This document shows, piece by piece, positions 17,489 through 34,463 of a stretch of 64,000 nucleotides of DNA (the first letter of the stretch is position 1; every line of letters starts with the position of its first letter). The stretch lies in NCBI RefSeq assembly GCF_009909105.1, contig NZ_JAAAPK010000002.1, positions 541,827-605,826 on the forward strand, in the 5' to 3' direction. A program made the translations under genes and the position numbers. Below the pieces are notes generated by a model that worked only from the letters and a program-made list of their open reading frames with translations, did not search any database and was not told the origin of the DNA. This DNA is from Corallococcus exiguus. GTDB taxonomy: Bacteria; Myxococcota; Myxococcia; Myxococcales; Myxococcaceae.

Positions 17489-17547
17489 AACGCTTCACTC
17501 CGCGAAGGAGCCCGGCCAGGACGCCGGGCCCTCGCGGACGCTTCCCG

Positions 17548-18018: not shown

Positions 18019-18138
18019 GGTGCGGACGATGGGCTGGGACACGGAAGTTGGGATTCTAACGACTGGGCCGCCGGCCTCCAAAGAGGAACGGCGGCCCGGA
18101 TGTCTTTCTGCGGTGTAGGCGGAAACCCGGGCCAGCGC

Positions 18139-19194: not shown

Positions 19195-19196
19195 GG

Positions 19197-20204
19197 TTAT
19201 TTCTTCTCCGCGTAGATGTGTTCCCAGATGGAGTCGCCAGAGGGCTGCGGCTCGTCGCGAACGGTGCGCGCCGCGGCGGCCAGCTCCTCTGAATACCGGG
19301 TGCGCGCCTCGTCCATCTGCTCGCGGTTGAGGACGCCTTCCTGCTCCAGCCGCGCCTCGAACAGGCGCAGGCAGTCCTGCTCCTCGTTCACGAAGTTGGC
19401 GCCGGACGCGGACGAGTGCCCGTACAGGCGGGACACGCGAGCCTCGATGAAGAAGGGCTTGCGCTCCTTGCGCACGTACTCCATCGCGGCCTGGATCTCC
19501 TGGTAGGACTCCACCGGATCAATGCCGTTGATGGTCTTCGCCTGGATGTTGAAGGCGCGCGCGCGGTCGCTGATGTTCGTCTCGCCGTGCTGGCCGTCCG
19601 AAGTGGTGCTGATGCCCCACTTGTTGTTGGTGACGATGATCAGGATGGGCAGCGGGTTGGCCGGACGGCTGCTCCAGATGAGGCAGCTGGCGAAATCGCC
19701 CTCGGCCGTGCCCGCGTCGCCGCCGGTGACGATGGTGATGCCGTCGCCGCCGTGGCGCTTCTGGGCCATGGCCGTGCCCGGCGCGACGGCGTACTGCACC
19801 TCGATGGGGGAGGTGACGGGCGCGATGTTCTTCGAGCGCCGGCTGAAGTGGCCCGCGAAGTTGCGGCCGCCGGAGTAGGGGTCCGTGGCCGTGTTCTTCA
19901 TCTGCCGCAGCGCCCCGATGGGCTCCTCGCCCATGGCGAGCAGCGTCGCGGACTGACGGTAGTGCGCGTGCAGGTAGTCGTAGGCCGGGCCCTCGCCGAC
20001 CTTCATCAGCATGCCCAGGGGGACGTTGAACGCCTCCTCACCGGGGCCGCCGATCCAGAAGTAGCCGTGGCCCTGCTTGTACATCTGGATCAGGCGCTCC
20101 TCCAGGACGCGCGCCTTCACCATCAGGTCATGGATGCGAATGAGCTGCTCTCGGGGCAGGGAGAGCGGCGCGGAGTTCTCTTTGATCAACCGGGGCCGAG
20201 ACAC
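19197..20204 (-). CDS. 2-oxoacid dehydrogenase E1 component alpha subunit (TPP-dependent)
   Basis: TPP-binding fold (GGDGITIVTGGDAGTAEGDF...). Lies immediately upstream of the beta subunit. Confidence 0.9.
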   Translation of the reverse strand: MSRPRLIKENSAPLSLPREQLIRIHDLMVKARVLEERLIQMYKQGHGYFWIGGPGEEAFNVPLGMLMKVGEGPAYDYLHAHYRQSATLLAMGEEPIGALRQMKNTATDPYSGGRNFAGHFSRRSKNIAPVTSPIEVQYAVAPGTAMAQKRHGGDGITIVTGGDAGTAEGDFASCLIWSSRPANPLPILIIVTNNKWGISTTSDGQHGETNISDRARAFNIQAKTINGIDPVESYQEIQAAMEYVRKERKPFFIEARVSRLYGHSSASGANFVNEEQDCLRLFEARLEQEGVLNREQMDEARTRYSEELAAAARTVRDEPQPSGDSIWEHIYAEKK

Positions 20205-20756
20205 GGGCGGACGACCTCGAAGGGGAAAGAAAGGGACGCCCCTATACTCCGAACGCGGCCTCCCGACTCAAGGACCCTGATGTCTTGGGTGTTCGCCAGC
20301 ACCTTTCTGCCCCCGGGTGGCGCGACGCGGCAATGAGCGGAACTCATCCATGCCCTCGTGACGTGCTGCTTCCAGGAGGCGGTTGGACGCTCCCGGTCCG
20401 GGCTGATCGCACGGCCGTTGGGGGGGCGGGTGAGGGGGCGACCGCGAGGAATAGCCCGACAGGTGGACTCCTCGCGTCAATCAGGAAGTGAGATAGAGTC
20501 CGCCCCGCCCCGACCGCGTTCTCCGACGCGGGCTCCCCCAGGTGTGCCTTTGTCCCGTACGAACCCGCGCCTCGATCCCGTGCCCGAATCACCTGATGCA
20601 TCCGATGCGGCGCCCGGCACCCCGCCTCCTCCACCGGAGTACACCGGCACCCATTCCCGGGAGCTCACCGGGCTGCGTGGGGAGAACACGGCCACCCGGC
20701 TGACGGGCTCGGTGGGGCTGCCGGCGACGGAGCCCACGAGCACGGTCATCGCGCCC

Positions 20757-22349
20757 ATGGAGGCCGGCGAGCTGCCCAACGTGGCGGCCATCCGCGGGCT
20801 CCGGTTGGATCAGCTGCTGCTGCTCACCACGGGCGCGCTGGTCATCGTGATCGTGGGCCTGTTGGCCGCGCTGTCCGCGAAGACGACGGAGGCGCAGCTC
20901 ACCGCGACGTCGGACCGCTTCACGCAGCGGCTCCAGTCCCAGGCGCGCGAACTGGGCCAGACGGTGAGCCACACGCTGGCGCTCACCTCCGCCACCAGCC
21001 TGCGCGACAACAACTACGCGTTCCTCACGGAAGTGGCGCGCTCCATCATCGCGGACAACCGAAACATCCTGCGCGTGCAGATGTTCGACGCGGACGGGCA
21101 GCTCGTCGCGGACAGCGACCCGTCCGCCAAGCTGGGCGAGTCCTCCGGAGGCCGCACCGCGGAGCGCCGCTGGGCCAGCGCCTTCTTCCAGGGCCAGCCC
21201 GTCTTCGAGTTCCAGGAGCCGCTCGACTACGGCTCGCAGGCCGGCAAGGGCGTGGTCGTCATCAGCTACTCGCTGGAGGACCTGCAGAAGCAGCTGCATG
21301 AGTTGGAGGAGACCAACCGCGCCGCGGTGCGCGCCAACACGCTGCGCATTGTCGGGCTGGGCGTGGGCTTCGTCGTCCTGGCCGGCGTGCTGGCCGCCTT
21401 CCAGAGCCGCCGCATCACCAAGCCGCTGGGCGTGCTCACCCACCGCGTGATGCAGCTGGCCGCCGGTGACCTGGGCGCTCGCGCGGGCACGGCGCCGGGC
21501 GCGGGCCGCGAGGTGACGACGCTGGGCGTGGTGTTCAACCACATGGCGGAGCGCATCAAGGTCCTGCTGGAGGACGTGCGCGCCAAGGCGCAGCTGGAGC
21601 GCGAGGTGTCGCTCGCGCGCACGGTGCAGGAGACGCTCCTGCCGGGCCGCGAGGCCGTGACGGTGGGGCCGCTGCGGCTGGCCGGGCTGGTGGTGCCCGC
21701 GGACGCGTGCGGCGGCGACTGGTGGTTCCGCGCCGCGCTGGACGACCGGCGCGTGGTGATTGGAATCGGAGACGTGACGGGCCACGGTCTGTCCACGTCG
21801 CTGGTCGCCACCAGCGCCACCAGCGGCTTCGCCTCCGCCATGACGCTGCGCGAGCCGTCGCAGGTGCACGCGCAGATGCTGATCACCGCGCTCAACGTGA
21901 CGCTGGCCAACGTGGGCCGCGGCGAGCACCAGATGTCCAGCGCGCTCGCGGTCATCGACGTGTACAGCGGGCAGATTGATTACGCGGCGGGCGCCCACCC
22001 GGCGGCGGCCATCTACAACCGGAACACGCGGCAGATGGCCTCGCTGCCCGCGCGTGGCCCGCTGCTGGGCGCGAACGTCGCCTCGCAGTTCACGTCGCGC
22101 CAGGCGGTGCTGAGCCCCGGCGACATCATCGTCTGGTACACGGACGGCCTCACCGAGGCGCGCGACGGTGCCAACCGGCTCTACGGCACGCAGCGGCTGG
22201 CCGCCGCGCTCCAGACCCACGCCCACCTCCCCGCCGACGCCCTTCGCGACGCGCTCCTCGCGGACGTGCGCGCGTACAGCGCCGGCCAGCCCCAGCGCGA
22301 CGACATCACCGTCATCGTCGCCGAATTCAGCCCCGCCCCCTCGCCTTGA
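20757..22349 (+). CDS. Membrane sensor HAMP-domain PP2C/SpoIIE-type (RsbU-like) serine phosphatase
   Basis: TM1, a periplasmic region of about 150 aa, TM2, HAMP and a SpoIIE/PP2C domain (GIGDVTGHGLSTSL...WYTDGLTEA...DDITVIV). An alternative GTG start lies at 20544 inside ORF 20358-22349. Confidence 0.8.
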   Translation: MEAGELPNVAAIRGLRLDQLLLLTTGALVIVIVGLLAALSAKTTEAQLTATSDRFTQRLQSQARELGQTVSHTLALTSATSLRDNNYAFLTEVARSIIADNRNILRVQMFDADGQLVADSDPSAKLGESSGGRTAERRWASAFFQGQPVFEFQEPLDYGSQAGKGVVVISYSLEDLQKQLHELEETNRAAVRANTLRIVGLGVGFVVLAGVLAAFQSRRITKPLGVLTHRVMQLAAGDLGARAGTAPGAGREVTTLGVVFNHMAERIKVLLEDVRAKAQLEREVSLARTVQETLLPGREAVTVGPLRLAGLVVPADACGGDWWFRAALDDRRVVIGIGDVTGHGLSTSLVATSATSGFASAMTLREPSQVHAQMLITALNVTLANVGRGEHQMSSALAVIDVYSGQIDYAAGAHPAAAIYNRNTRQMASLPARGPLLGANVASQFTSRQAVLSPGDIIVWYTDGLTEARDGANRLYGTQRLAAALQTHAHLPADALRDALLADVRAYSAGQPQRDDITVIVAEFSPAPSP

Positions 22350-22357
22350 CGAATCGC

Positions 22358-24871
22358 ATGCGCCCATTCCTTCGTTCCCCGCGCCGCGTCTCCACCGCGC
22401 TCGCCCTGCTGGCCACCCTGGCCGGTCCGCCGGCGGCGCTCGCCCAGTTCCGCCCGCCGCCCGCCACCGAGGCGCAGCGCATGACGGAGCAGGGCGAGCA
22501 GGCCCTCGTGTCCGCCAACGCCGCCGCCTCCAAGGGTGACAAGAAGGAGGCGGAGGAGAAGTTCAAGAAGGCGCTCCAGCTCTTCGAGCAGGCGCTCACG
22601 CAGGAGCCCCAGTCCGTGTTCGCCGCCGCGGGCCTGGGCAGCGCCGCCAACGCGCTCCAGGACTTCCAGCGCACGGTGACGCGCCTTGCGCCGGTGTTCG
22701 CGCAGAACCCGCAGGAGCTGTCGCTCGCGTACCCGCTGGGCACCGCGTACTTCAAGCTGCGCCGCTTCCAGGAGGCGGTGCCGGTGCTGGAGCAGGTGGC
22801 CGCCGCGGATCAGCCGGACCACCTCATCGTCCACTACTACCTGGCCAGCTACTACCTGTACGTCCAGGACGGGAACCGCGCCGTGACGCGGCTGCAGCGC
22901 TACCTGACGCTGCGCCCGGAGAAGCTCGCGGGCAACGACTTCCAGATCCACGAACTGCTGGGCAAGGCGCATCTCATCCGCCGGGACGCCGTCGCCGCGC
23001 GCGCCTCGTTCGAGAAGGCGCAGGCCGGCCGGGCCGAGTCCGCGACGGCGCAGATCGGCCTCGCGGCCGTGCTGGAGATGGAAGGCCACGTGCCGGAGTC
23101 CCGCGCGCTCCTGGAGCGGCTGGTGACGAAGTTCCCGCAGGTGGCGGAGCCGAAGGAGCGCCTCGCGCGCCTGTACCTGGCCGCGGGCGACGTGCCGCGC
23201 GCGGACCTGCAGGCCACCGCCCTGATGAAGCTGGGCTCCACGCCCGCCGCGCACCTCTTGATGGGTGACGTGCGGCTCGCGCAGAAGCAGCCCGCGCAGG
23301 CGGAAGCGGAGTTCCGCAAGGTGCTGGAGCTGCAGCCGGGCCTGCTCCTGGGACAGATTGCCGTGGGCAAGGCGCTCCAGGCGCAGGCGCGCCACGAGGA
23401 GGCCATCCAGTTCCTGGAGTCCGCCGTGAAGTCGGGTGGCGGCAGCCTGGAGCTGTGGGCGACGCTGGGCTCCGTCAACCGCCGCGCCGGCCGCTACCAG
23501 CGCGCGGTGGAGGTGCACCGGCGCGTGGTGGAGATGGCCCCGCGCCAGGCGCTGGGCCACGTGCTGCTGGGCGCGGATCACTTCGCCACCGGCCAGTGGG
23601 ATCAGGCCATCGAGGACTACGGCAGCGCGCTCCAGGTGGAACCCAACCACCCCGGCGCGAAGCAGTGGCTGGCCCGGGCCCTGGCCCACCGCGCGAGAGA
23701 TCGCGCCGGCACCCAGCGCCTGGAAGACGCCGTGCGCGACCTGCGCCGCGCGTATGACCTGGACCGCTCCGTGCCCATGGCCCGCCGGCTGGGCGCGGCG
23801 CTCCTGGACAGCCACCAGTTCGCGGAGGCCCGCAAGGTGATGGAGGGCGCGGTGACGCTGCCGGGCGCGACCTGGCGCGAGCACCTGTTGCTCGGCTACA
23901 CCCGGCTGGGCGGTGGCGATGCGCAGGCCGCGCTCGCCGCGTTCACCCAGTCAGGTGAGGCCACGCAGGAGCCGGATCAGCGCGCGGAAGCGTCCGCGGG
24001 CGCCGCGCTCGCGGAAGTGGAGCTGGGCCAGGTGGACGCCGCCGTGCAGCGGCTGACGGACGCGGGGCCCTCCAAGACGGCCGCGAAGGTGGCGGAGGCG
24101 AACCTGCCTCGCGTGCTGGTGCGCCGGGCCCTGGCGAAGCTGGAGACGGGCGACGCCGCCGCGGCGAACCGGGACCTGGACGCGGTGGACCGCCTGGGCA
24201 CCGGCAAGCGCGCGGACGTGGCGAAGCTGGCCGCCTTCGCCCGGGCGCTCACGCGCGCGGAAGAAGGGAAGTTCGCGGAGGCCACCGCGGGCCTCAAGCG
24301 CTCCCTCACGCCTGCACCGGAATGGGCGTGGCCCAACACGCGCGCGCTCGCGGACGCGTGGGTGCTCTACCGCCAGGGCAAGGTCGCGCCCTCGCGCAAG
24401 CTGCTCACCGCCGCGCAGAAGAAGCCCATGCCCGGGCAGCCGAAGTGGATGGGCAACCTCACCGGCGCGCTGCTGCGGCGTGAGGCGGCGCTCGCGTACG
24501 CCTCTGGCAACATGAAGGCGTCGGAGAAGGCGCTGAAGGCCGCGCTCGCCGCGACGCCCGACGACGCGCTGGTGCAGCACAACCTGGCGTGCGTGGGCTG
24601 GCGCCAGGGCGACAGCGCTTCGGCGCTCGCGACGTGGAAGCGCCTGGAGACCGCCGTACCTGTCGCCTCGCTCAACCTGGGCATCGACGCGCAGGAGCGA
24701 CGGCATGAACCCGCCGAGGCCGTGGACGCCTGGCGCCGCTACCTGGCTGCTGGCGCGGGCCCCCGCGCTGCCCAGGTGCGGGAATGGAAGGACCGCCTGC
24801 AGGGCCTCTATGGACTGGGTGACGCGCAGGGCGTCACGCCGGCCACCGGGGTCGCGGAGGAGACGCCGTGA
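22358..24871 (+). CDS. Secreted TPR-repeat protein
   Basis: Signal peptide (ALALLATLAGPPAALAQ) followed by many TPR-like helical repeats. Its start overlaps the stop of the upstream phosphatase gene. TTG at 22346 is an alternative start. Confidence 0.75.
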   Translation: MRPFLRSPRRVSTALALLATLAGPPAALAQFRPPPATEAQRMTEQGEQALVSANAAASKGDKKEAEEKFKKALQLFEQALTQEPQSVFAAAGLGSAANALQDFQRTVTRLAPVFAQNPQELSLAYPLGTAYFKLRRFQEAVPVLEQVAAADQPDHLIVHYYLASYYLYVQDGNRAVTRLQRYLTLRPEKLAGNDFQIHELLGKAHLIRRDAVAARASFEKAQAGRAESATAQIGLAAVLEMEGHVPESRALLERLVTKFPQVAEPKERLARLYLAAGDVPRADLQATALMKLGSTPAAHLLMGDVRLAQKQPAQAEAEFRKVLELQPGLLLGQIAVGKALQAQARHEEAIQFLESAVKSGGGSLELWATLGSVNRRAGRYQRAVEVHRRVVEMAPRQALGHVLLGADHFATGQWDQAIEDYGSALQVEPNHPGAKQWLARALAHRARDRAGTQRLEDAVRDLRRAYDLDRSVPMARRLGAALLDSHQFAEARKVMEGAVTLPGATWREHLLLGYTRLGGGDAQAALAAFTQSGEATQEPDQRAEASAGAALAEVELGQVDAAVQRLTDAGPSKTAAKVAEANLPRVLVRRALAKLETGDAAAANRDLDAVDRLGTGKRADVAKLAAFARALTRAEEGKFAEATAGLKRSLTPAPEWAWPNTRALADAWVLYRQGKVAPSRKLLTAAQKKPMPGQPKWMGNLTGALLRREAALAYASGNMKASEKALKAALAATPDDALVQHNLACVGWRQGDSASALATWKRLETAVPVASLNLGIDAQERRHEPAEAVDAWRRYLAAGAGPRAAQVREWKDRLQGLYGLGDAQGVTPATGVAEETP

Positions 24872-25794
24872 AGACGCCATCCCTTGTCGCGCGGGGGAGC
24901 CTCCTGCTCGCCGCCGTGCTGTTCGCCGTTTCCGTTGCCAGCCCCGCGTCCGCCGCGCCGAAAAAGGCCACGCTGGGCGTGTTCCTCGCCACGACGTTGT
25001 CGGACGGTCAGGAGCGCTTCCAGTACGCGGAGGCGCTCGCCCAGAAGCTGGAGGCCAGCCTGGGCCGCCCCGTTGGCGCCAAGAGCTTTGGCCGCTACGA
25101 GGACTTCTCCAAGGCGGTGGGGGAGGGGCAGATCGACTTCGCCGTGGTGGACGGCTGGGCCGCGGTGCAGCTGGGCTCCAAGGCGGATCCGGTGGCGTAC
25201 GCGCCGCGCGCCGGTGAGACGCAGCAGCGCTGGGCCATCATCTCCCTCCAGAAGGGCACCGTGAAGGACCTCGCCGGCAAGCGCATGGCGCTGGTCAAGG
25301 GCGCGGGCTCCGCGGATCCGAAGTTCGTCTCCCACGTCGTGCTGGGCGGCGACCTGGATGCCCAGAAGCACTTCAAGCTGGTGCCGGTGCCCAACGTGGA
25401 GTCGGCGGTGAAGATGCTGGAGGCCAAGGGCGCGGAGGCCGCGCTCGTGCCGGTGGCGCACGTGCCCAAGGACATGCGGGTGCTCTTCAAGAGCAGCCGG
25501 GTGCCGGGCGCCGTGCTGGTGGACCTGAAGGGCGGGGGAGACGCGTTGTCCCAGTCCCTGTCCTCCGTGGGTGCGGTCGCCCCGTTCGACGCCTTCGCCC
25601 GCATCCAGGGCCGCGAGTTCGAGGACTTCCGCAAGCTCGTCACCCAGGGCCCCCCGCGCCGTCAGCCCGTCCTCGCGGACTCTCCCGACCTGCGGGTGGA
25701 GACGCCCGTGCTCGTCCAATCCGAGTCGCTGGGTCCCGCCCTCCCGCCGTTCGTGGACGACCTGGCCGTCTCCGCCGAACAGCCGGATGACTGA
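24868..25794 (+). CDS. PhnD/SsuA-like periplasmic substrate-binding protein (orphan, no ABC permease or ATPase nearby)
   Basis: GTG start overlapping the TPR stop (GTGA). Signal peptide plus phosphonate-binding-protein-like fold. Confidence 0.65.
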   Translation: MKTPSLVARGSLLLAAVLFAVSVASPASAAPKKATLGVFLATTLSDGQERFQYAEALAQKLEASLGRPVGAKSFGRYEDFSKAVGEGQIDFAVVDGWAAVQLGSKADPVAYAPRAGETQQRWAIISLQKGTVKDLAGKRMALVKGAGSADPKFVSHVVLGGDLDAQKHFKLVPVPNVESAVKMLEAKGAEAALVPVAHVPKDMRVLFKSSRVPGAVLVDLKGGGDALSQSLSSVGAVAPFDAFARIQGREFEDFRKLVTQGPPRRQPVLADSPDLRVETPVLVQSESLGPALPPFVDDLAVSAEQPDD

Positions 25795-26090
25795 TTGCGC
25801 CGTGAGCTGATCCGCGCACGGGGTTTCCACCGCCGTGCGCGTGTTTCACCGCGATCGACAGCCATGACTTGGCCTAAGGCGAGTTATTGCGGTAATTTGA
25901 GAAGTCGAGCGGAACGCCACCGTTCAGGGGTGGAAACTCATCCCTGAGAACAATTGCCAGTCGCACCGGCTCTGGTTCCTGGCGCTAGAACCGCGGATAC
26001 CCCCTGCTTCCCCTCGTGGAATTGAGAACGATGGACTCGACTGAGTACGGTGGATCGCGCACCAACGCGGTGAAGGGGTTTGCCGGTCGG
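25795..26090 (+). promoter_or_regulatory. Long, relatively AT-rich leader upstream of the TonB-dependent receptor, carrying inverted repeats
   Basis: GTTTCCACC near 25822 and its inverse GGTGGAAAC near 25931. GC is below the local average. Confidence 0.4.
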
Positions 26091-28631
26091 ATGGGCGCGC
26101 GCGCGTGCCTGACCCTGGTGGTTTGCGCCCTGTCCCTCTTCGCGGTGGAGACGGCCCAGGCCCAGGAGGCCCAGGAGCCCGCCCCCAAGACGCGGACCAA
26201 GGCCCCCCGCAAGCGCGCGGCGACCACGCCGGGCGCCAAGGCCGCCACGCCGGGTGCCAAGGCCGCCACGCCCGGCGCGAAGCCTCCGCGCACGGCGAAG
26301 ACGCGCCGGGGCGCGAAGGCGCAGCCCCCGCCGACGGACGTGGAGCCCATTCCCGGGGACGAGCCCGCCGCGCAGCCGCCGGCGCTCGCCACCGAGCCGC
26401 CGCCCGCGCCGCTCGCCCCCGTGGCCGGCCCTGGCCCGTCCGTTTCGGATCCGCTGCCCGTGGCCTCGCCGTCGCCGTATGACGGGCCGCTGACTTCGGA
26501 CATCCCGTCCAACCCGCCGCCCGCGCCCACGCTGGGTGCCGGCGCGGTGCTCCCGTCGTCACAGCCGCGCACGGCGGACAACGTCCCGGACCGCGCGCCC
26601 TTCACGGAGCCCACCTCCGACCGCGCGCTGCCGCCGCCCTCCAGCCTCTCCGGCCTGGACGGCCCGGACCTGGGCGGTGGCGACGACCTGGAGCAGAACA
26701 TCAACAGGGCGCTGAGCGAGGCCGTCGTCACCACGGCGTCCAAGCGCAGCCAGCGCATCTCCGACGTGCCCCTCACGGTGTCCTGGATTCCGGCGGAGGA
26801 GCTGGAGGGCACCGGCCAGTTCTCGCTCTGCGAGGCCATCCAGTACTTCCCCGGCATGGAGTGCCGCCGGGGCTCCATGCGCAAGGCGGCGGTGAGCGCG
26901 CGCGGCCTGGGCTCCAACTACCTGTCCAACCGCCTCCTGCTCCTCAAGGACGGCCGTCCGCTGACGGACCCCTGGACGGGCCAGTTCTACGCGGATGAGA
27001 CGACGCCGCTCACCAACCTGAAGCAGGTGGAAGTCATCCGCGGCCCGGGCTCGTCGCTCTACGGCTCCAACGCCTTCAGCGGCGTCATCAACATCATCGA
27101 GCGCCAGCCCGCGGACCTCATCGCCAAGGGCCAGAACGTGGGCGCCGACGCGCGCATCCTCGCGGGCCAGGACAAGACCTGGCGCCTGCAGACCAACGTC
27201 GCCGGCCGCGGCGGCCCGGTGGAGGCGCTGCTCGGCTACTACGGCTTCGGCTCGGACGGCCCGCAGCTCTTCAACAACCCGCAGCTGAACCAGACGGACA
27301 CCAACGAGGACTCGCTGGTCCACCAGGTGAACGGCAAGGTCCGCGTGGGTCCTCTCGCGCTGGACGCGGACTTCACGGACGGCAACATCGGCCGGCCCGG
27401 TGGTCAGAACATCTCCACCGTGGGCAACTGCGGCCGCTGCCACTACACCGCGCAGGACAACGAGCACGTCCAGAACCTGAACACCGCCCTGCAGCTGGAT
27501 CAGCAGGTGACGGACAACGTGCGCGTGTTCGCCCAGGCCTACGCCTTCTTCAAGCGCCGCAACGTGACGCTGGAGAATGAAATCACCGGCGCCCTGGAGG
27601 ACACGCTGGGCAAGCGCAGCCGCCTGGGCGGTGAGGCGCGCGCGCTGTTCTCCCTGGACAAGCTCTCCGTCACCGTCGGCGGCGACGTGAAGGCCGACCA
27701 GGTGAACAACCAGAACATCCTGCCCGGCCTGACCCTGGACGACACGAAGCAGACCATCCTGGGCGGCTTCGTGGACGCGGAGTACCGCATCACGGACCGG
27801 CTGGTGGTGGGTGCGGGCGCTCGCTACGACAACTACCAGATCCCCTCCAAGGTCTGGGAGGCGAAGACGGATCAGGTGTCCCCGCGCGCCAGCGTCGTGT
27901 TCCACGCCATCCCGGAGCTGCTCACGCTGCGCACCAACTACGGCCGCGCCTTCCGCGCGCCCACGCTGGCGGAGCTGGCCATCAACCAGCAGATGTACGC
28001 CGCGACGCTCCTGGGCAACCCGTCCCTGCGCGCGGAGACGCTGGACACGGTGGAGGCGGCGGTGGACTTCTGGCCGCTGGACCGCAGGGTGCGCCTGACG
28101 GGCACGGGCTTCTACAACCGCGCCCGCAACTTCATCAATCAGGAGCTCCTCTTCGGCTCCACGTCCCAGTTCAAGAACCTGGGCGACGCGCGCGTGGCGG
28201 GCTTCGAGGCGGAAGCGGCGGCGCAGGTGCCGTCCCTCAACTCGTCCTTCGACGTGGCCTACCAGTTCCTGGACGCCCAGGCGCTGCCGGTGGGCGGCGG
28301 ATCCAGCTACCCGCTGGACTACGCGCCCAGCCACCGCGTCTACCTGCGCGGCCGCACCAACATCGGCAAGTTCGCCTTCGTGGAGCTCTACGGCCTGTTC
28401 GTGGGCGCCCGGTATGATCCGGGCTTCGTGGTGGACGAGAACGCCGGCACCACCACCCGCGTGAAGCTGCCCAGCTACATCACCGCGACCGCGCGCGTGG
28501 GCTTCAACGTCCACGAGCGCGTGGCGGTGTCACTGTTGGGCACGAACCTCTTCAACGCGAAGTACGAGGAGTCCCACGGCTTCCCCGCACCGCCGCTGGG
28601 CGTCTTCACAGAAGTTCGACTCCATTATTAG
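26091..28631 (+). CDS. TonB-dependent outer-membrane receptor with a long low-complexity N-terminal extension
   Basis: Signal peptide, then about 200 aa of Pro/Ala/Lys-rich sequence (3x TPGAKAA), then a plug (VVTTASKRSQRISDVPLTVSWI) and a barrel ending in a C-terminal aromatic residue. Alternative starts at 26016 and 26031. Confidence 0.85.
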   Translation: MGARACLTLVVCALSLFAVETAQAQEAQEPAPKTRTKAPRKRAATTPGAKAATPGAKAATPGAKPPRTAKTRRGAKAQPPPTDVEPIPGDEPAAQPPALATEPPPAPLAPVAGPGPSVSDPLPVASPSPYDGPLTSDIPSNPPPAPTLGAGAVLPSSQPRTADNVPDRAPFTEPTSDRALPPPSSLSGLDGPDLGGGDDLEQNINRALSEAVVTTASKRSQRISDVPLTVSWIPAEELEGTGQFSLCEAIQYFPGMECRRGSMRKAAVSARGLGSNYLSNRLLLLKDGRPLTDPWTGQFYADETTPLTNLKQVEVIRGPGSSLYGSNAFSGVINIIERQPADLIAKGQNVGADARILAGQDKTWRLQTNVAGRGGPVEALLGYYGFGSDGPQLFNNPQLNQTDTNEDSLVHQVNGKVRVGPLALDADFTDGNIGRPGGQNISTVGNCGRCHYTAQDNEHVQNLNTALQLDQQVTDNVRVFAQAYAFFKRRNVTLENEITGALEDTLGKRSRLGGEARALFSLDKLSVTVGGDVKADQVNNQNILPGLTLDDTKQTILGGFVDAEYRITDRLVVGAGARYDNYQIPSKVWEAKTDQVSPRASVVFHAIPELLTLRTNYGRAFRAPTLAELAINQQMYAATLLGNPSLRAETLDTVEAAVDFWPLDRRVRLTGTGFYNRARNFINQELLFGSTSQFKNLGDARVAGFEAEAAAQVPSLNSSFDVAYQFLDAQALPVGGGSSYPLDYAPSHRVYLRGRTNIGKFAFVELYGLFVGARYDPGFVVDENAGTTTRVKLPSYITATARVGFNVHERVAVSLLGTNLFNAKYEESHGFPAPPLGVFTEVRLHY

Positions 28632-28639
28632 GGCGCTGT

Positions 28640-29482
28640 TTGGATACCGTCGCCGCCGTGAAGGATGCTCCCCTGAAGTTGACGCCGGACACGACGCTCA
28701 CGCCGGAGGCGCTGGAGAAGGCCTCCGGAGTGCTGGCCCGGGACGGCCTGTTGTTGGGGCGCGGTGACGACGCGGCGCCGCAGCTGGTGCTGTTCGACGG
28801 GCGGTTCACTCCCGCCCACGCCGCGCTCCTGGAACGCCGTCCCCCGGCGCTGCTGCTGGCCACCCGTGAGGGCGGCCAGCCGTCCGCCTGGGAGGCGCGG
28901 CTGTTGAGCGCGCTGTTGCGCGGCGAGCCCATGATCCCCAAGGAAGCAGCCACGTCCGTGGCGTGGCTGGGCAGCGTGGCGGAGGTGACGGCCGTGGGCG
29001 AGCGCGCGGCCGAGGCCGTCCTCCAGGCTGGCGGCTCCAAGGGCGCGGCCAGCCGGGTGGCGGATGTCGTCCATGAGATTGGCGTGAACGCGCTGCTCGA
29101 CGCGCCAGTGGACGGAAGCGGCGAGCCGAAGTACGCCCACCGGCGCGGCCAGGTGCAGTCGGTGGCGGATGAAGACCGCTGCCTGGTGTCGTGGGCGGTG
29201 GCGGACGGCAGGGCGTGGCTGGAGGCGACGGACCGCTTCGGCCGCCTGTCGGTGTCACCGTTGGTGCGGGTGGTGAAGGCCTGGGGTGAGAAGGCGCAGG
29301 TGGATGCTTCGGGTGGTGGCGCGGGCCTGGGTCTGCGGCGCATCCTGGAGCACAGCGACGCAGTGGCGGTGCGGGTGACTCCGGGAAAGCGCACACAGTT
29401 CGCCTGTGGAGTGGACCTGGGCGACGGTCGCCGTCGGGCCGCGCAGCCCAAGTCGCTGCTGTTCAGTCTGGAACGAGGGTAG
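28640..29482 (+). CDS. GHKL-superfamily ATPase/kinase-like protein (putative RsbW/SpoIIAB-type partner-switching kinase) with a novel N-terminal region
   Basis: TTG start 9 bp after the receptor stop. N-box-like HEIGVNALLDA (compare ELVTNAIIH of SpoIIAB) and G2-box-like GGGAGLGLRRIL. Confidence 0.5.
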   Translation: MDTVAAVKDAPLKLTPDTTLTPEALEKASGVLARDGLLLGRGDDAAPQLVLFDGRFTPAHAALLERRPPALLLATREGGQPSAWEARLLSALLRGEPMIPKEAATSVAWLGSVAEVTAVGERAAEAVLQAGGSKGAASRVADVVHEIGVNALLDAPVDGSGEPKYAHRRGQVQSVADEDRCLVSWAVADGRAWLEATDRFGRLSVSPLVRVVKAWGEKAQVDASGGGAGLGLRRILEHSDAVAVRVTPGKRTQFACGVDLGDGRRRAAQPKSLLFSLERG

Positions 29483-29486
29483 GCGG

Positions 29487-32400
29487 GTGGAGAGCCAAAC
29501 TTCCAATGCCAGCATCACCTCCCTGCGCGTGGGCAGTCTGACCCACGTGCGCGTGGCCGGGGTGATCGACGAAACCTTCCCCCTCACGCCAGCCTCCAAG
29601 GGCATCCAGGGCCTGGTGGTGGTGGACCTGGGCCTGGTGGAGCGGATCAGCTCCTTCGGTGTGCGCCGGTGGATCGAGTTCGCCGGCCACCCGCCGCAGG
29701 GCGTGTCGGGGCTGTACGTCGTCAACGCGCCGCCGGTGGTGGTGGATCAGCTCAACATGGTGGAGGGCTTCGCGGGCGTCGCGCGCGTGCTCTCGCTGTT
29801 GGCGCCGTACACGTGCCGCTTCTGCAAGGAGGACCGGCTGCGGCTGGTCCGCCTGGTGGAGGAGGCGAAGGTGCTGGAGCAGGGCGGGGCCCCGCCGCAC
29901 CAGTGCCCGGTGTGCTCCCAGCCGCTGGAGTTCGCGGACGAGCCCACGGAGTTCTTCGACTTCGCGCGCCGCCAGCAGTTCTCCGCGGTGGATCCCGCGG
30001 TGCTGCGCTACCTGCGCTCCGGCATCCCGTCGGAGCCGTCCGAGCTCTCGTCGCACCTGAAGATCGTCCAGGACGACATCACCTTCATCACCCTGGCCAG
30101 TACGCTCAAGGGCGACCTCAACGTGCGCCGGCTGGCGTCCGGCCTGGAGGGGCGCGTCGCGTTCGACTGCTGCCACGTGAGCGTGGTGGAGCAGGAAGCG
30201 CTGCCGCGCATCGAACAGGTGCTGGAGGTGGCCGCGCAGGGCGCCCAGGTGGTGCTGTGCCGCGTGCCGCCGCCGCTGCTGGCCGTGCTGGCGAAGTCCA
30301 CCAAGACGCTGCCCGCGAAGCTGGCCACGCTGTGGCTGCCGTGTGACTGCCGCAACTGCGGCCAGGTCACCCACCAGCGCATCCAGACCTCCGAGTACCT
30401 GGAGGTGCTGCGCGCCAAGGGCACCATGGAGCGCGTGTGCCCCGTCTGCGGCGGCAGCGCCCGGGCTCCGGCGCTCGCGCAGTTCCAGGGGCTGCTCGCG
30501 CGCACGCCGCTCACCGACAAGCCGCTGGAGGACATCGAGGCGCTGGAGCAGCGCGCGCTCAGTCAGTACCTCTTCGGCTCCACCAACACGGACCCCGGCG
30601 CCCGGGGCTCGTCAGCCACGGACACGCACACCAGCGGCGCGCGGCTGCAGATCATCCGCCGGCTGGGGCAGGGCGGCATGGCGGAAGTGTTTCTCGCCAA
30701 GCAGCAGGGCGTGAAGGGCTTCGAGAAGTTCGTGGTGATGAAGAAGATTCTCGCGCAGTTCGCTGAGAATCCTGAGTTCGTCGACATGCTCTTCGCGGAG
30801 GCCCGCGCCAACGCGCGCCTCACGCACCCCAACGTCGTGCAGACCTTCGACGTGGGCGTGACGGACGGTGTGGCGTACATCCTGATGGAGTATGTGCGCG
30901 GCCCGGACCTGAAGCGCCTGCTCACGGAGCTGCGCCGCAAGGGCATGGCGCTGCCGCTGGAGCACGCGCTGCGCATCGTGGCGGAGGTCGCCGCGGGCCT
31001 GCACTACGCGCACAGCTACGTGGACCCTTCCGGCACGGCGCACCCGGTGGTGCACCGCGACGTCAGCCCCCACAACGTGCTGGTGTCGCTGGACGGCGCC
31101 ATCAAGCTGTCGGACTTCGGCATCGCCAAGGTGCAGGGCGAGGAGCACACGCAGGCGGGCGTCATCAAGGGGAAGATTTCGTATCTCTCCCCGGAGGCCG
31201 CCAGCGGCCGCCCGCTGGACTGGCGCAACGACGTGTTCGCGCTGGGCGTGGTGCTCTTCGAACTGCTCACCGGCCAGCTGCCGTTCCGCCGGGACCATGA
31301 CGCGGCCACGCTCGCGGCCATCGTGCGCGAGCCCGCGCCGGTGCCCTCGCAGCTGCGGCCCCACATCCCGCAGGACGTGTCGGACCTCATCCTGCGCGCG
31401 CTGGTGAAGGACCCGGCGCGGCGCACGCCCTCCGCGGCGGCGATGCGCGAGGAGATTGAAGCCGTCATCGCGCACCACCGGCTGTCCTCGTCGCCCGCGT
31501 CGGTGGCGCAGTTCTTCAAGGAGACGCTGGGCGACCGGCTCTCCGAGTACGCGCCGTCATCCATCGCCGGCCCGGGGACGGGCTCCAACCCCCGGGCGCT
31601 GATGCCGGGCACGGGCTCGCACTCGCGCAACGTGGGCACGGGCTCGGGCAGCGACATGCGGGCCCCCTCGGACCTGTCCCGTCCGCCCGTGCGCGGCGGT
31701 TCCGGCAGCATGCCCCGGATGGAGCCGCCCCCGGTGGCCTCCCCGCCGGAGCCCGCCGAGCGGGGCACCGAGGTCGTCTCCGTCAACGGGCCGCCCATGG
31801 CCTCCGCGCCTCCGGTGGCACCGCCCGTGGCCGCCGCGCCCCGTCCGTCGCGCCCGGCCGCGCCTCCGCCCACGTCGCCGATGCCGCCGCCCACCGCGGT
31901 GCGCCCCGCGGCGTCCGCCAACGTGCCCACGCGCGTGGGGCCGCCGCCGCAGGCGCCCGCGCGTCCGTCGGTGGCGGTGCCGTCCGTCGCCCCGCTGACC
32001 GCGGCTCCGCAGCCGCACCCCGTGGCAGCGCCCCCGTCGCATGGGGGCACCCACGCGCAATACGGGGCCGCCCACGCGCAGCAGGGAAGCGCCCCGCCGC
32101 CGCCGCTGGGGCACCATGCGCCGCCGCCGACCGGCTCCCACGCGGCCTATGGGGGACACCACCCCGTGGCCGCGCCGCCGCCGCACGTGGCTGCCCCGCA
32201 TGCTCCGCCGGTGTCCGCTCCCGTGGCTCCGCCCACGCGGCCTCCGGCGGCTCCCGTGGCCGCGCCGCCGGCCCCCGTCCACGCGGTCTCCCCCACGGCT
32301 CAGGCGCCCGGCGCCGAAGCGACGGGGAAGGGACTGACGCCCGGTCAGCGCAAGGGGCTCATCGTGGGCGGCGTGGGCCTGGTGCTCGCGGGGCTCGCGT

Positions 32401-32831
32401 TGGTGTTCCTGCTGCCCAAGGGCGGCGTGGAGGTGCGCAACGCCCAGGAGGGTGAGCGCGTCTACGTGTCCGGCGTCCTGCTGGATGCGAGCCAGGGCCT
32501 GCCCGAAGGCAACACCGGCTGGCTCATCTCCACGGCCGTGGACGGCAAGCTGCACCGTTTCGGCAAGGTGCCGAAGTCGGAGCACATCGACCTGCGCACG
32601 CTCGCGGACGCCCCGCCCCAGGCGGAGGCCCGGGGCATGCTCAGCATCACTGGTGCCCAAGGCTGCCGCGTGGCGCTGGGCTCGCAGGTGCTGGAGGGCC
32701 AGACGCCCCTGTCCAACCAGATGCCCGCGGGGCGCGAGTTCGAGGTGCGCGTCACCTGCGGCGGCAAGCCCGACGTCGTCCGCTGGGTGATGGCCGTCCC
32801 GGGGCAGGGCGTCGTGCTGGACGTGCCCTGA
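29487..32831 (+). CDS. Tandem-STAS / zinc-ribbon / Hanks-type Ser/Thr protein kinase / Pro-rich / TM / PEGA-like domain protein
   Basis: GTG start 5 bp after the upstream stop. STAS motif VVVDLGLVERISSFGVRRW, CxxC...CxxC ribbons, kinase motifs (AMKKI-like VVMKKIL, HRDVSPHNVLV, DFGIAK, SPE), and a C-terminal TM plus periplasmic domain. Confidence 0.85.
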   Translation: MESQTSNASITSLRVGSLTHVRVAGVIDETFPLTPASKGIQGLVVVDLGLVERISSFGVRRWIEFAGHPPQGVSGLYVVNAPPVVVDQLNMVEGFAGVARVLSLLAPYTCRFCKEDRLRLVRLVEEAKVLEQGGAPPHQCPVCSQPLEFADEPTEFFDFARRQQFSAVDPAVLRYLRSGIPSEPSELSSHLKIVQDDITFITLASTLKGDLNVRRLASGLEGRVAFDCCHVSVVEQEALPRIEQVLEVAAQGAQVVLCRVPPPLLAVLAKSTKTLPAKLATLWLPCDCRNCGQVTHQRIQTSEYLEVLRAKGTMERVCPVCGGSARAPALAQFQGLLARTPLTDKPLEDIEALEQRALSQYLFGSTNTDPGARGSSATDTHTSGARLQIIRRLGQGGMAEVFLAKQQGVKGFEKFVVMKKILAQFAENPEFVDMLFAEARANARLTHPNVVQTFDVGVTDGVAYILMEYVRGPDLKRLLTELRRKGMALPLEHALRIVAEVAAGLHYAHSYVDPSGTAHPVVHRDVSPHNVLVSLDGAIKLSDFGIAKVQGEEHTQAGVIKGKISYLSPEAASGRPLDWRNDVFALGVVLFELLTGQLPFRRDHDAATLAAIVREPAPVPSQLRPHIPQDVSDLILRALVKDPARRTPSAAAMREEIEAVIAHHRLSSSPASVAQFFKETLGDRLSEYAPSSIAGPGTGSNPRALMPGTGSHSRNVGTGSGSDMRAPSDLSRPPVRGGSGSMPRMEPPPVASPPEPAERGTEVVSVNGPPMASAPPVAPPVAAAPRPSRPAAPPPTSPMPPPTAVRPAASANVPTRVGPPPQAPARPSVAVPSVAPLTAAPQPHPVAAPPSHGGTHAQYGAAHAQQGSAPPPPLGHHAPPPTGSHAAYGGHHPVAAPPPHVAAPHAPPVSAPVAPPTRPPAAPVAAPPAPVHAVSPTAQAPGAEATGKGLTPGQRKGLIVGGVGLVLAGLALVFLLPKGGVEVRNAQEGERVYVSGVLLDASQGLPEGNTGWLISTAVDGKLHRFGKVPKSEHIDLRTLADAPPQAEARGMLSITGAQGCRVALGSQVLEGQTPLSNQMPAGREFEVRVTCGGKPDVVRWVMAVPGQGVVLDVP

Positions 32832-32904
32832 GCCGGACGGAATGTCCCGTGCCGGAGGACACCGCTGACAAAGCGGCCCTCCGGTCGGTGAGGCCGTGCG
32901 GGGC

Positions 32905-33297
32905 CTACAGCTTCTTCAGCAGGAAGGCCCGGTACGTGCCGTAGCCCGGCAGGTCCTCGCCGAGCGAGCCGTCCACCTTCGCGCGCAGGGTGAGCGTGCC
33001 GTCCGTCAGGTCCAGCGTGAAGCCCGGCGCGTCCTTGTGGACGATGTGCAACGTCTGGATGCCTTCCCGGACGGCCTGCTTTCCGATGGCGTCGCTACAG
33101 ACGGACTTCATGTCGTCGATGAGCCGGTCGAAGACGCCGTTGGAGAGCATCTGGATGGCGGCCACGGTGGTGAAGCTCGCCTCGTCCAGCGTCACCTGGA
33201 TGTCCGCGCCCGCCGCGGCCTCCTTCAGCTCCGCCACCTTCGAGGCGAAGGTGTCGTTCTTGAACGCGGCCATCTCCGACCGTTCGGCGAGACCCAT
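32905..33297 (-). CDS. SCP2 sterol-carrier-like domain protein
   Basis: SCP2 fold signature (LRAKVDGSLGEDLPGYGTYRAFLLKKL at the C-terminus). Confidence 0.65.
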   Translation of the reverse strand: MGLAERSEMAAFKNDTFASKVAELKEAAAGADIQVTLDEASFTTVAAIQMLSNGVFDRLIDDMKSVCSDAIGKQAVREGIQTLHIVHKDAPGFTLDLTDGTLTLRAKVDGSLGEDLPGYGTYRAFLLKKL

Positions 33298-33384
33298 GGT
33301 GTTCGTGCTCCGTGCTGTGTCCGGGCGGGAATGCCTGAAAGAAGGCGGAAACCTCGTGGACAGGCCGCCCGTGTGTCAACGCCC

Positions 33385-33690
33385 TCAGTCGTGGGTGCCC
33401 ACGTGCAGGTCGCCGTGGCGCGTGCAGACCCAGTGGAAGGCGCAGGAGCAGGCCACCGCGCGGGCATGCGTGCAGCACCGGCCCCCGAAGTCCTCCGGGA
33501 GGACTTCGCGCTCGGGAGGTGGCGGGTCGGGCAGCTCCTTGGGGGCGCCCCGCCCGGAGTCCGCGGGTGCGCTGCCGCAGCAGCCGCGCACGAGGCACTC
33601 GGGACACAGGGACAATTCGCAGTGCGCGCACCAGTCGAACACCTCTCCGGCGGTGCCACGGCGCTCACAACCTCCACAGGCGTCGAACAT
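33385..33690 (-). CDS. Small cysteine-rich protein (12 Cys, CxxC x3; putative zinc-binding)
   Basis: Genome-typical third-position GC in this frame. No homology that I recognise. Confidence 0.35.
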   Translation of the reverse strand: MFDACGGCERRGTAGEVFDWCAHCELSLCPECLVRGCCGSAPADSGRGAPKELPDPPPPEREVLPEDFGGRCCTHARAVACSCAFHWVCTRHGDLHVGTHD

Positions 33691-33932: not shown

Positions 33933-34463
33933 ATGCGCAGACACCGCCGCATCATCGGAGTGTTCGGCTCCGGGGCGCACTCCCACGACGAGTGGGTCGT
34001 CCCCCTGGCGCGGTGGATTGCGGAGGCCGGGTTCGACCTGCTCACCGGCGCGGGTGGCGGCGTCATGAGCGTGGCGGCGGGGGCCTTCGTCCAGGTGGAG
34101 GGGCGGCGGGGGGCGGCCATCGGCATCATCCCCGGCACCGTGGGCGCGGACGGCCGTTACCAGCCCCGGGCCGGCTACCCGAACACGGACATCGAAATCC
34201 CCATCTACACCCACCTGCCGCTCAGCGGGGAGCAGGGCACGGACCCCATGAGCCGCAACCACATCAACGTGCTGACGCCGCATGCCCTGGTCGCGCTGCC
34301 CGGGGGCGCCGGCACCGCGGCGGAGGCCGTCCTGGCCTTGCGCTATGGCAAGCCGCTCATCCTGCACGGGCCACCGGAGCTGTTCCGGCGCTTCCCGGTG
34401 GAGGCCGAGCGCACCACCTCCCTGGAGCGGGTGGCCGAGTTCCTCCTGGCCGCCACCCGCTAG
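33933..34463 (+). CDS. LOG / TIGR00725-family Rossmann-fold nucleotide-binding protein
   Basis: GAGGGVMS and PGGAGTAAE motifs typical of LOG/SLOG proteins. Confidence 0.7.
   Translation: MRRHRRIIGVFGSGAHSHDEWVVPLARWIAEAGFDLLTGAGGGVMSVAAGAFVQVEGRRGAAIGIIPGTVGADGRYQPRAGYPNTDIEIPIYTHLPLSGEQGTDPMSRNHINVLTPHALVALPGGAGTAAEAVLALRYGKPLILHGPPELFRRFPVEAERTTSLERVAEFLLAATR

Follow-up and report, generated by a model that had tools for sequence, protein, structure and literature searches.

Partner Switching and Its Described Relatives

Partner switching is a textbook mechanism of sigma factor control, and we know of few outputs of it other than sigma factors. Myxobacteria have among the largest bacterial kinomes, with roughly 100 Hanks-type Ser/Thr kinases, and to our knowledge it is mostly unknown how these kinases are switched on. 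In this work, we have analyzed a 64,000-nucleotide stretch of the Corallococcus exiguus genome (contig NZ_JAAAPK010000002.1, positions 541,827 to 605,826; hereafter the window) that carries a cassette of six co-directional genes, g1 to g6, at ~20.7-32.8 kb. The genes encode, in this order, an inner-membrane sensor phosphatase, a periplasmic TPR protein, a PhnD-like solute-binding protein, a TonB-dependent receptor, a predicted GHKL kinase, and a double STAS protein fused to a Hanks kinase. The cassette is real, conserved, and uncharacterized, and is a variant of partner switching; with a probability of about 0.55, it operates as a phospho-switch of the partner-switching type that has a membrane-anchored Hanks Ser/Thr kinase, and not a sigma factor, as its output. 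An earlier reading of the window from its letters (the original prediction) had the anatomy essentially right, in that all elements of a partner switch are present (a PP2C phosphatase, a GHKL protein of the RsbW/SpoIIAB type, and STAS domains) and are tied, by fusion or by linkage, to a Hanks kinase and to envelope proteins. Its view of the receptor as the organizing center is not supported.

The canonical partner switches, SpoIIE/SpoIIAA/SpoIIAB and RsbU/RsbV/RsbW of B. subtilis and UsfX/RsfB of M. tuberculosis, have in common with the cassette a SpoIIE-family PP2C phosphatase, a GHKL kinase of the SpoIIAB/RsbW subclass, and a STAS domain with a conserved serine at the start of helix 2. Unlike them, the cassette has no sigma factor; its STAS domain is duplicated, and the two copies, each with a Zn-ribbon behind it, share one protein with a Hanks kinase, a transmembrane helix, and a periplasmic domain; its GHKL-type protein has an extra N-terminal domain and is missed by the HATPase_c and HATPase_c_2 models; and its phosphatase is a membrane Cache-HAMP sensor. 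M. tuberculosis Rv1364c, a PAS-PP2C-RsbW-STAS fusion, differs in domain set and order, has sigma-F as its output, and has no membrane or periplasmic layer. Cross-talk between PknD and Rv0516c is also known from M. tuberculosis.

Three systems come closer in one respect each. In the RsbU-RsbV1/V2-RsbW system of Chlamydia trachomatis, RsbU spans the membrane and has a sensor domain that binds a ligand in the periplasm (Soules et al. 2020, via PMC8256260). The system shares with the cassette a transmembrane PP2C that senses on the periplasmic side and acts on a partner switch in the cytoplasm, but its output is the availability of the housekeeping sigma factor, and it includes no receptor, TPR protein, binding protein, or Hanks kinase fusion. 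SiaABCD of P. aeruginosa likewise has a HAMP-PP2C membrane phosphatase (SiaA, the best NCBIfam match of g1) and a non-sigma output, whereas g1 scores 86 bits against the 700-bit cutoff of the SiaA equivalog NF038263, the proposed output of the cassette is a Ser/Thr kinase, and neither SiaC (DUF1987) nor a GGDEF diguanylate cyclase was found among the cassette proteins. In the Anabaena HenR/Alr3423/All4160 system, an N-terminal STAS domain is fused to the effector enzyme that it regulates; a serine kinase phosphorylates this domain, a SpoIIE-type phosphatase reactivates it, and the output is again not a sigma factor (bioRxiv 10.64898/2026.04.08.717354). This recent work gives an experimental precedent for the control of an enzyme by a STAS domain on the same chain, yet its effector is a sugar transferase, its single STAS domain has no Zn-ribbons, its phosphatase is controlled by a receiver domain, and no envelope proteins take part.

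TonB-dependent transducers are known from FecA-FecR-FecI and from Bacteroidetes SusC-like receptors with pairs of anti-sigma and extracytoplasmic function (ECF) sigma factors. The cassette resembles them in that its receptor is extended N-terminal to the TonB box and is encoded beside an inner-membrane signaling protein. Where FecA-type receptors have a folded STN domain, g4 has a disordered tether that bears a short conserved Pro-rich motif, and the downstream machinery in the cassette would be a PP2C/GHKL/STAS switch. Since g4 has no STN domain by Pfam and neither a FecR-type anti-sigma nor an ECF sigma factor lies in the cassette or the flanks scanned, the cassette is not a FecA-type transducer.

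The M. xanthus phosphatome paper remarks in passing that STAS-kinase fusions exist in Sorangium (PMC2887360). No description of the cassette, or of a module of g5, STAS-Zn-ribbon, and Hanks kinase, was found in the literature searched, which left out most subscription journals; the claim that the combination is not a described system stands to that extent. The cassette offers a testable route of Hanks-kinase control, in which a sensor phosphatase and an RsbW-like kinase of cryptic sequence are combined with a STAS switch on the Hanks kinase itself, and its M. xanthus orthologs (MXAN_4557-4562) sit in a genetically tractable model organism. Two families that are invisible to Pfam, g5 and the STAS-Zn-ribbon, gain a structural and contextual assignment that could be extended to database entries in the thousands. 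Should the envelope link prove true, the cassette would add a second mechanistic solution to TonB-dependent cell-surface signaling, besides FecA-FecR-FecI.

A Cryptic GHKL Protein and a Double STAS Kinase

Gene g5 (28640..29482, + strand; MXAN_4558 ortholog) encodes a cytoplasmic two-domain protein that has zero Pfam or NCBIfam matches even at E ≤ 10, and whose sequence profile retrieves from the PDB a single spurious nanobody match (E 0.69). Its AlphaFold2 (AF2) model, with a predicted local distance difference test score (pLDDT) of 89.7 and a predicted TM-score (pTM) of 0.89, matches SpoIIAB, SiaB, RsbW, and UsfX in Foldseek searches of the PDB with probability 1.0 and TM-scores of 0.70-0.83 per target. 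The RsbW/SpoIIAB-type GHKL domain, assigned by fold and motifs, spans the C-terminal ~165 residues (28976-29479, +), where the Bergerat boxes are invariant in an alignment of 39 homologs: the N box E146-x3-N150-A-x2-D-A-P, the G1 box D198-x-F-G201, and the G2 box G225-GGAGLG231. Distant members of the g5 family give sub-threshold HATPase_c or HATPase_c_2 matches. In the AF2 model, residues 12-110 (28673-28969, +) form an N-terminal alpha/beta domain of unknown type with weak BRCT-like or Rossmann-like fold matches. On the strength of the fold matches, the invariant N, G1, and G2 boxes, and the sub-threshold matches of distant members, we assign g5 to the RsbW/SpoIIAB class of GHKL kinases, an identity confirmed at the level of the modeled fold. 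The original prediction had proposed a GHKL protein with an N-box and a G2-box, to be abandoned if its product hit no GHKL or HATPase_c model; with Pfam and NCBIfam this is literally the outcome, but the three lines of evidence above override it.

The 1114-aa product of g6 (29487..32831, +), the MXAN_4557 ortholog as judged by locus-tag order, begins with a module that is internally duplicated (STAS followed by CxxC...CxxC; E 2e-5 over 126 columns). STAS-1 (29508-29813, +) and Zn-ribbon 1 (29814-29915, +) precede STAS-2 (30057-30350, +) and Zn-ribbon 2 (30348-30449, +), the two ribbons being marked by the four CxxC pairs of the N-terminal region. AF2 models the N-terminal 360 residues at an overall pLDDT of 85.5, with values above 90 in both alpha/beta domains, and the Foldseek list for this region is mostly STAS: 4hyl (a Haliangium anti-sigma antagonist), SpoIIAA in its complex with SpoIIAB, RsbV, RsbS, and SLC26, with probability 1.0 for the 4hyl, SpoIIAA, RsbV, and RsbS folds. 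The two STAS domains proposed earlier hold by fold, then, while their Pfam scores remain below threshold (STAS_2 E 1.4e-4, STAS E 0.042). In STAS-1, an invariant S56-F-G-V-R follows S55 at the N-terminus of helix 56-67, where SpoIIAA and RsbV carry their phospho-serine; STAS-2 has Glu or Gln at this site.

The Hanks-type Ser/Thr kinase of g6 (30648-31445, +) was correctly recognized from the start: it matches Pkinase at E 1.3e-41 and has all catalytic motifs (GQGGMAEV, VVMK, HRDVSPHN, DFG, and SPE). A Pro/Ala-rich linker of ~270 aa (~31554-32351, +) leads to a single transmembrane helix, seen by hydropathy (32358-32414, +), and a 138-aa PEGA-like extracytoplasmic domain (32415-32828, +). The topology proposed for this part of the protein is borne out by the one helix; PEGA itself is matched in 5 of 11 g6 orthologs (best E 6e-5) and was not detected in the window copy.

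The Conserved Core and Its Distribution

Using g5 as the anchor, we recovered 61 genome loci, and g5 and g6 are adjacent in every one of them. All six genes are collinear in each sufficiently long locus of Corallococcus, Myxococcus, Pyxidicoccus, Archangium, Hyalangium, Vitiosangium, and Citreicoccus, that is, over at least seven genera at 50-75% protein identity, and the position of the cassette beside E1 dehydrogenase genes is syntenic across genera; the whole neighborhood, which the original prediction had proposed to check, is conserved. The cassette of C. coralloides KYC2213 (L001) has proteins 95-99% identical to those of the window. In divergent metagenome-assembled genomes (MAGs), g5 and g6 stay adjacent while the surrounding genes vary. 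SpoIIE phosphatases with differing sensor inputs stand in for g1 in three of them: a HAMP-HisKA-HATPase-4xREC-SpoIIE hybrid in L049 and L053, the former with an additional SBP_bac_8 binding protein, and a HAMP-SpoIIE protein immediately upstream of g5 in L056. Elsewhere, a binding protein lies near g5-g6 (L047), or a calcineurin-like metallophosphoesterase, not a PP2C, lies just upstream (L054:4823-5635). The receptor is retained in L050, L051, L057, and L058, the last with g1-g3 inverted.

The g5 family is far larger than these loci. Exhaustive HMMER searches yield 2,479 clusters (at 50% identity) at E ≤ 1e-3 and 1,498 at E ≤ 1e-10, with some distant members fused to dCache-HAMP, 7TMR-DISM, or PilZ. 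In one natural fusion (P0232), found in two independent assemblies, a complete g5-like protein shares its chain with a g6-type STAS-1 and Zn-ribbon (E 1e-37; 39% identical to g6 over its residues 3-175), in the reverse of the g5-g6 gene order. All three distant members sampled directly adjoin a Hanks kinase, and one of these kinases carries [STAS-Zn-ribbon]x2 at its C-terminus (E 2e-50). When metagenomes were scanned with a profile built from distant members, at least 511 loci were confirmed, 80 of which were used for neighborhood counts. Within 4 kb of the g5-like gene, 48 of the 80 have a STAS-Zn-ribbon protein, 32 a Hanks kinase, and 11 a SpoIIE PP2C; the background, 125 kb of sequence beyond 4 kb, holds 1, 3, and 1 partner hits. 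The first recognized + strand feature within 800 nt downstream is a STAS-Zn-ribbon in 41/80 loci and a PP2C in 10/80. Where the flanks are adequate (n = 21), a kinase is present in 18 loci, a STAS module in 15, and at least one partner in all 21. The STAS protein of the distant branch is typically g6 minus its kinase, i.e., [STAS-Zn-ribbon]x2 with a transmembrane helix and an extracytoplasmic domain.

What is conserved, then, is the trio of g5-type kinase, STAS-Zn-ribbon protein, and Hanks kinase, which a SpoIIE phosphatase joins in some cases; the Myxococcaceae/Archangiaceae clade alone adds to it the receptor, the TPR protein, and the PhnD-like protein. A functional link between g5 and STAS-1 rests on the P0232 fusion, the invariable adjacency of g5 and g6, and the neighborhoods of the distant branch. 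Contrary to the original prediction, the cassette is not built around a TonB-dependent receptor: g5 and g6 are the conserved core, divergent relatives have other genes or none in place of the receptor, TPR protein, and binding protein, and not one of the 80 distant loci has such a receptor within 4 kb of its g5-like gene.

Several variants of the core were seen along the way. Proteins with FIST or FIST_C sensor domains recur beside distant g5-kinase pairs (L068:4774-7188, L069:1-4464, and L084:4018-7881), and in L084 two FIST units are fused to [STAS-Zn-ribbon]x2 behind a PP2C and a g5-like gene. A "FIST" label derived from a single-sequence probe was dropped, as the probe protein itself carries the STAS-Zn-ribbon module and its matches overlapped. 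Two g5-like genes lie side by side in L120, L124, L132, L134, L135, and L144, flanked by Hanks kinase genes in L120, L132, L134, and L144. Kofleriaceae MAGs have two STAS-Zn-ribbon(-kinase) proteins per contig (P0138/P0143 on 4,128 nt; P0146/P0159 on 3,286 nt), and the Kofleriaceae-type STAS-kinase relative L062 has no g5-like gene adjoining it on a short contig that ends inside the STAS-kinase gene. P0126 (570 aa, ENA) has a g6-type STAS-1 and Zn-ribbon followed by a canonical STAS and, in place of the kinase, a cyclic-nucleotide-binding domain. A complete Myxococcus-like cassette is found in L031 (BNCN01000007.1), titled 'Comamonas sp. KCTC 72670' (identity to the window of 56% for g5, 88% for the kinase, and 85% for the upstream E1 gene); this assembly is probably mislabeled or contaminated.

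A Proposed Phospho-Switch with a Hanks Kinase as Its Output

The comparisons above establish the identities of the components, the linkage of g5 to the STAS module, and the recurrent association of both with PP2C phosphatases and Hanks kinases. Building on these, we propose that g5 binds the unphosphorylated STAS-1 of g6 and phosphorylates its invariant Ser55/Ser56, and that g1, a Cache-HAMP-PP2C protein, would strip this phosphate upon periplasmic stimulation. The phosphorylation state of STAS-1 would set the binding of g5 to the [STAS-Zn-ribbon]x2 module, and this binding may in turn gate the fused kinase domain and the phosphorylation of its downstream targets. STAS-2, with Glu or Gln at the phospho-site, is probably a non-phosphorylatable scaffold or docking domain. 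No sigma factor gene was found among the cassette proteins or the flanking genes scanned, which supports a non-sigma output. A link of the switch to the phosphatase is supported by the SpoIIE proteins that replace g1 in L049, L053, and L056 and by the M. xanthus ortholog of g1, MXAN_4562, reported as the sole SpoIIE-like phosphatase of that organism (PMC2887360).

A number of points weigh against this reading. Every curated GHKL sequence model misses g5, and its G1 box is atypical (D-x-F-G vs D-x-G-x-G), so g5 might bind ATP yet not be a kinase; it also has the extra N-terminal domain. The fold matches to STAS proteins reach an E-value of 2e-3 at best, which is modest. A PP2C within 4 kb in 11 of 80 distant loci makes the phosphatase a non-obligate neighbor, and the receptor is missing from this radius throughout; the candidate promoter and hairpin between g3 and g4, described below, are compatible with envelope genes that are loosely coupled to the core. 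That g5 phosphorylates Ser55/56, that g1 reverses this, and that the kinase domain is under such control are steps that we infer, as we do the direction of regulation, the envelope relay, and trans-envelope coupling.

The direction could be the opposite, as in a stressosome of the RsbR/RsbS/RsbT type. The STAS pair of g6 would then sequester g5 until a signal leads to phosphorylation of STAS-1 and the release of g5, which would activate another protein, for instance the PP2C g1, in the way that RsbU is activated by RsbT, or a target docked on the N-terminal domain of g5; the g6 kinase would be an input and could phosphorylate the STAS module or g5. The unequal STAS pair, one phosphorylatable and the other acidic or amide at the site, does resemble RsbS/RsbR, the conserved N-terminal domain of g5 could bind a downstream partner, and distant STAS-Zn-ribbon proteins that have no kinase and are fused to FIST or to a transmembrane helix and extracytoplasmic domain fit a sensor-scaffold. 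However, no second STAS/anti-sigma pair or sigma factor lies nearby as a receiver, and the recurrent pairing with Hanks kinases, fused or adjacent, is explained more simply by a kinase that is the regulated effector. We consider the stressosome-like arrangement unlikely.

The Sensor Phosphatase and the Envelope Proteins

The phosphatase and periplasmic proteins encoded upstream were all identified as the original prediction had them, and hydropathy confirms the topology, with two transmembrane helices in g1, signal peptides on g2-g4, and one helix in g6. In g1 (20757..22349, +; ortholog MXAN_4562), the helices (20814-20870 and 21342-21398, both +) enclose a periplasmic Cache-like domain of ~157 aa (20871-21341, +) and are followed by HAMP (~21405-21557, +; Pfam E 4.7e-9) and a full-length SpoIIE/PP2C match (~21741-22328, +; Pfam E 2.7e-38), both above Pfam thresholds, with the metal-binding motifs DVTGHG, YTDGL, and DDITV intact. 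Cache matches are weak but consistent in six of seven g1 orthologs, and sCache_4 is just at the cutoff in the window copy. The 837-aa periplasmic protein g2 (22358..24871, +) matches several TPR families above Pfam thresholds (E down to 6e-29), has a Sec-type signal peptide with AxA and no lipobox, and is collinear in all Myxococcaceae/Archangiaceae loci of sufficient length. The periplasmic protein g3 (24868..25794, +) has a signal peptide and matches Phosphonate-bd (Pfam E 1.5e-10, 41 bits vs a cutoff of 27); it is an orphan, with no ATP-binding cassette (ABC) permease or ATPase partner among the neighboring genes and no transporters in the flanks. Its ortholog MXAN_4560 is developmentally regulated (group 8 'down') in a 96-h developmental transcriptome (PMC6791715 supplements), and the other five M. 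xanthus orthologs were not found in the portion of that supplementary text available to us.

The receptor g4 (26031..28631, +; ortholog MXAN_4559) has a Plug (~26757-27086, +; Pfam E 2.5e-18), a barrel domain (~27369-28550, +; Pfam E 3.3e-43), and a TonB-box-like sequence conserved in orthologs (LSEAVVTTASKR, 26712-26747, +), as a TonB-dependent receptor should. MXAN_4559 has been detected in outer-membrane and vesicle proteomes (PMC3222651, PMC4158809). A heme-receptor identity was rejected: FRAP- and NPNL-like strings can be found by eye, but the NCBIfam score is 182 bits against a 317-bit cutoff. The low-complexity N-terminal extension, predicted at ~200 aa, is there at a length of ~183 aa (22% Pro, 16% Ala). 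Its Pro/Ala-rich tether, which follows the signal peptide (~26163-26579, +), varies across orthologs from ~60 aa in Archangium to ~190 aa in the window copy, and a 21-nt tandem repeat (window 26224-26282; 2.8 copies, 89% matches) that encodes its ATPGAKA repeats fits a rapid change of tether length between genera. What is conserved within the extension is one short motif, NVPxx[AS]PFxxPxxxRx[LM]PPP (26580-26639, +; from the ortholog alignment), which is kept in 51 of 51 orthologs, the most divergent MAGs included, and sits ~40 residues ahead of the TonB box. In FecA-type transducers, the signaling domain occupies the position that this Pro-rich motif holds in g4, just N-terminal to the TonB box.

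An envelope input layer is supported by the six-gene synteny, the conserved motif ahead of the TonB box, and the Cache-like sensor domain of g1, and would be limited to the Myxococcaceae/Archangiaceae clade. The motif in the tether may be where the TPR protein g2 docks. Either or both of g2 and g3 may relay the occupancy of receptor or ligand, with the g1 Cache domain or the g6 PEGA-like domain on the receiving end. A still wider proposal, which we advance as tentative and on balance doubtful in its entirety, is that the g5-type GHKL protein and [STAS-Zn-ribbon]x2 make up a widespread, unannotated device that gates Hanks kinases from PP2C-sensed inputs, and that in Myxococcaceae/Archangiaceae this device is the cytoplasmic end of a new form of TonB-receptor cell-surface signaling. 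Here the receptor would signal ligand occupancy by way of the conserved Pro-rich motif on its disordered tether, and the TPR protein and/or the orphan binding protein would read the motif and pass the signal to the Cache-HAMP-PP2C protein.

Gene Boundaries and Transcription Units

The window has a GC content of 70%, and all six + strand reading frames of the cassette have third-codon-position GC of 0.87-0.95; as this fits a genome of 70% GC, we read all six as coding. Antisense frames that overlap them have a non-coding signature. The start of g1 was placed at ATG 20757, with GTG 20712 as a possible alternative. After its stop at 22349, g2 can start at ATG 22358 (an 8-nt gap) or at TTG 22346 (a 4-nt overlap); the ATG is the more likely start, and the overlap proposed at this junction accordingly loses favor, while that of g2 and g3, which share four nucleotides (GTGA, 24868-24871), is confirmed. 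The gaps between g4 and g5 (28632-28639) and g5 and g6 (29483-29486) measure 8 nt and 4 nt, not 9 and 5 bp as first given. A natural g1-g2 fusion suspected in L030, L033, L036, and L055 was ruled out by a stop codon at every translated junction. The sole large spacer within the cassette precedes the receptor, as predicted, at a length of 236 nt instead of ~300 bp; the start of g4 at ATG 26031 follows from its context GAGAACGATG, which is invariant in the cross-genus alignment.

Just after the g3 stop, this spacer contains a GC-rich hairpin followed by TGTTTCA (25813..25841, +), a candidate terminator or attenuator with a folding energy of -28.6 kcal/mol (z -3.1) and compensatory changes in 5 of its 15 pairs among Corallococcus species. 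Further on lies a sigma-70-like element (25869..25898, +; -35 TTGGCC, an 18-nt spacer, and -10 TAATTT), a candidate internal promoter of g4-g6, whose pattern of TTGGC[CT], 17/18 nt, and TAnnnT is conserved in most genera. It is visible by cross-genus alignment only: a generic sigma-70 consensus scan called no promoter, and terminator calls were at chance level. A riboswitch or other known RNA in the receptor leader was ruled out, with no Rfam match at E ≤ 1 over 20000-33500. The conserved promoter-like element, the hairpin, and the inversion of g1-g3 in L058 together suggest two transcription units, g1-g3 and g4-g6, possibly with read-through, and not a single operon.

The same spacer features and inversion would suit units that are merely co-localized, with g4 as an ordinary nutrient receptor, g1-g3 as an independent sensor-phosphatase unit that acts on other phosphoproteins (e.g., in a general reversal of Hanks-kinase phosphorylation by what is the sole SpoIIE-type phosphatase of the genome), and g5-g6 as the sole true module. 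The scarcity of PP2C and absence of receptors near the distant g5-like genes also fit this explanation, as does the resemblance of g4 to heme/siderophore-type receptors in NCBIfam, at scores below cutoffs. It sits poorly, however, with six-gene collinearity over at least seven genera despite 50-75% protein identity, with only 8 nt between the g4 stop and the g5 start, with a non-transport motif conserved ahead of the TonB box in every ortholog, with the recurrence of differing SpoIIE phosphatases and periplasmic binding proteins beside g5-g6 in divergent MAGs, and with a g3 that has no ABC partner. We judge such independence improbable, to about the same degree as the stressosome-like arrangement, and retain the phospho-switch with a kinase output as the preferred reading.

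Flanking Genes and Further Explanations

Korp et al. give MXAN_4545-4561 as a lantipeptide cluster (PMC4902038), a label that is also flagged in the PMC6791715 supplements, and the cassette might on this antiSMASH-based annotation hold accessory or regulatory genes of a lanthipeptide, a ribosomally synthesized and post-translationally modified peptide (RiPP). Two Lant_dehydr_N-like genes do directly follow g6 in 21 loci, the divergent MAG L051 included, and the g6 kinase domain weakly resembles the kinases of class III/IV lanthionine synthetases; those matches, however, reach 73 bits against 650 and cover the generic kinase domain only. Scans of the six cassette proteins and of flanking genes turned up no LanC/cyclase domain, and no LanB-like gene is present in the 64-kb window (by tblastn) or in Corallococcus and Hyalangium loci, where the cassette is intact. 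The reading is very improbable in general and was rejected for the window, which has no LanB-like sequence; the label itself is explained by the LanB-N-like genes downstream of g6 in some genera. An anti-phage defense system based on a Ser/Thr kinase (PD-T4-6-, MADS-, or BREX-PglW-like) is more improbable still and was likewise rejected, for although the PADLOC PD-T4-6 and mad6 models match g6 (E down to 3e-71), with weak NCBIfam MAD6 and PglW matches, all are confined to the generic Hanks kinase domain, g1 and g5 match no PADLOC model, the chromosomal position beside the E1 dehydrogenase genes is syntenic, the base composition of the cassette is the same as in the remainder of the window, and an envelope-sensor architecture is atypical for defense.

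The gene pairs with Lant_dehydr_N only (LanB N-terminal-like) occur after g6 in Myxococcus, Pyxidicoccus, Archangium, Vitiosangium, Citreicoccus, and L051, and are absent from Corallococcus and Hyalangium; examples are L029:14018-16348, L031:17769-20297, and L018:14242-16545 and 17444-20338.

In the window, the genes on both sides are unrelated to the cassette. Upstream lie divergent genes for the alpha and beta subunits of an E1 dehydrogenase, and downstream of g6 lie a small minus-strand reading frame, a SLOG-family gene, and a cyclase-AAA-TPR gene. The SLOG gene (33933-34463) is of cluster 4 (LOG-like), and the last of these (35018-39304, +), 2.2 kb past the cassette, encodes a large protein (1,428 aa) that combines the catalytic domain of an adenylate/guanylate cyclase with an AAA_16 ATPase and TPR repeats.

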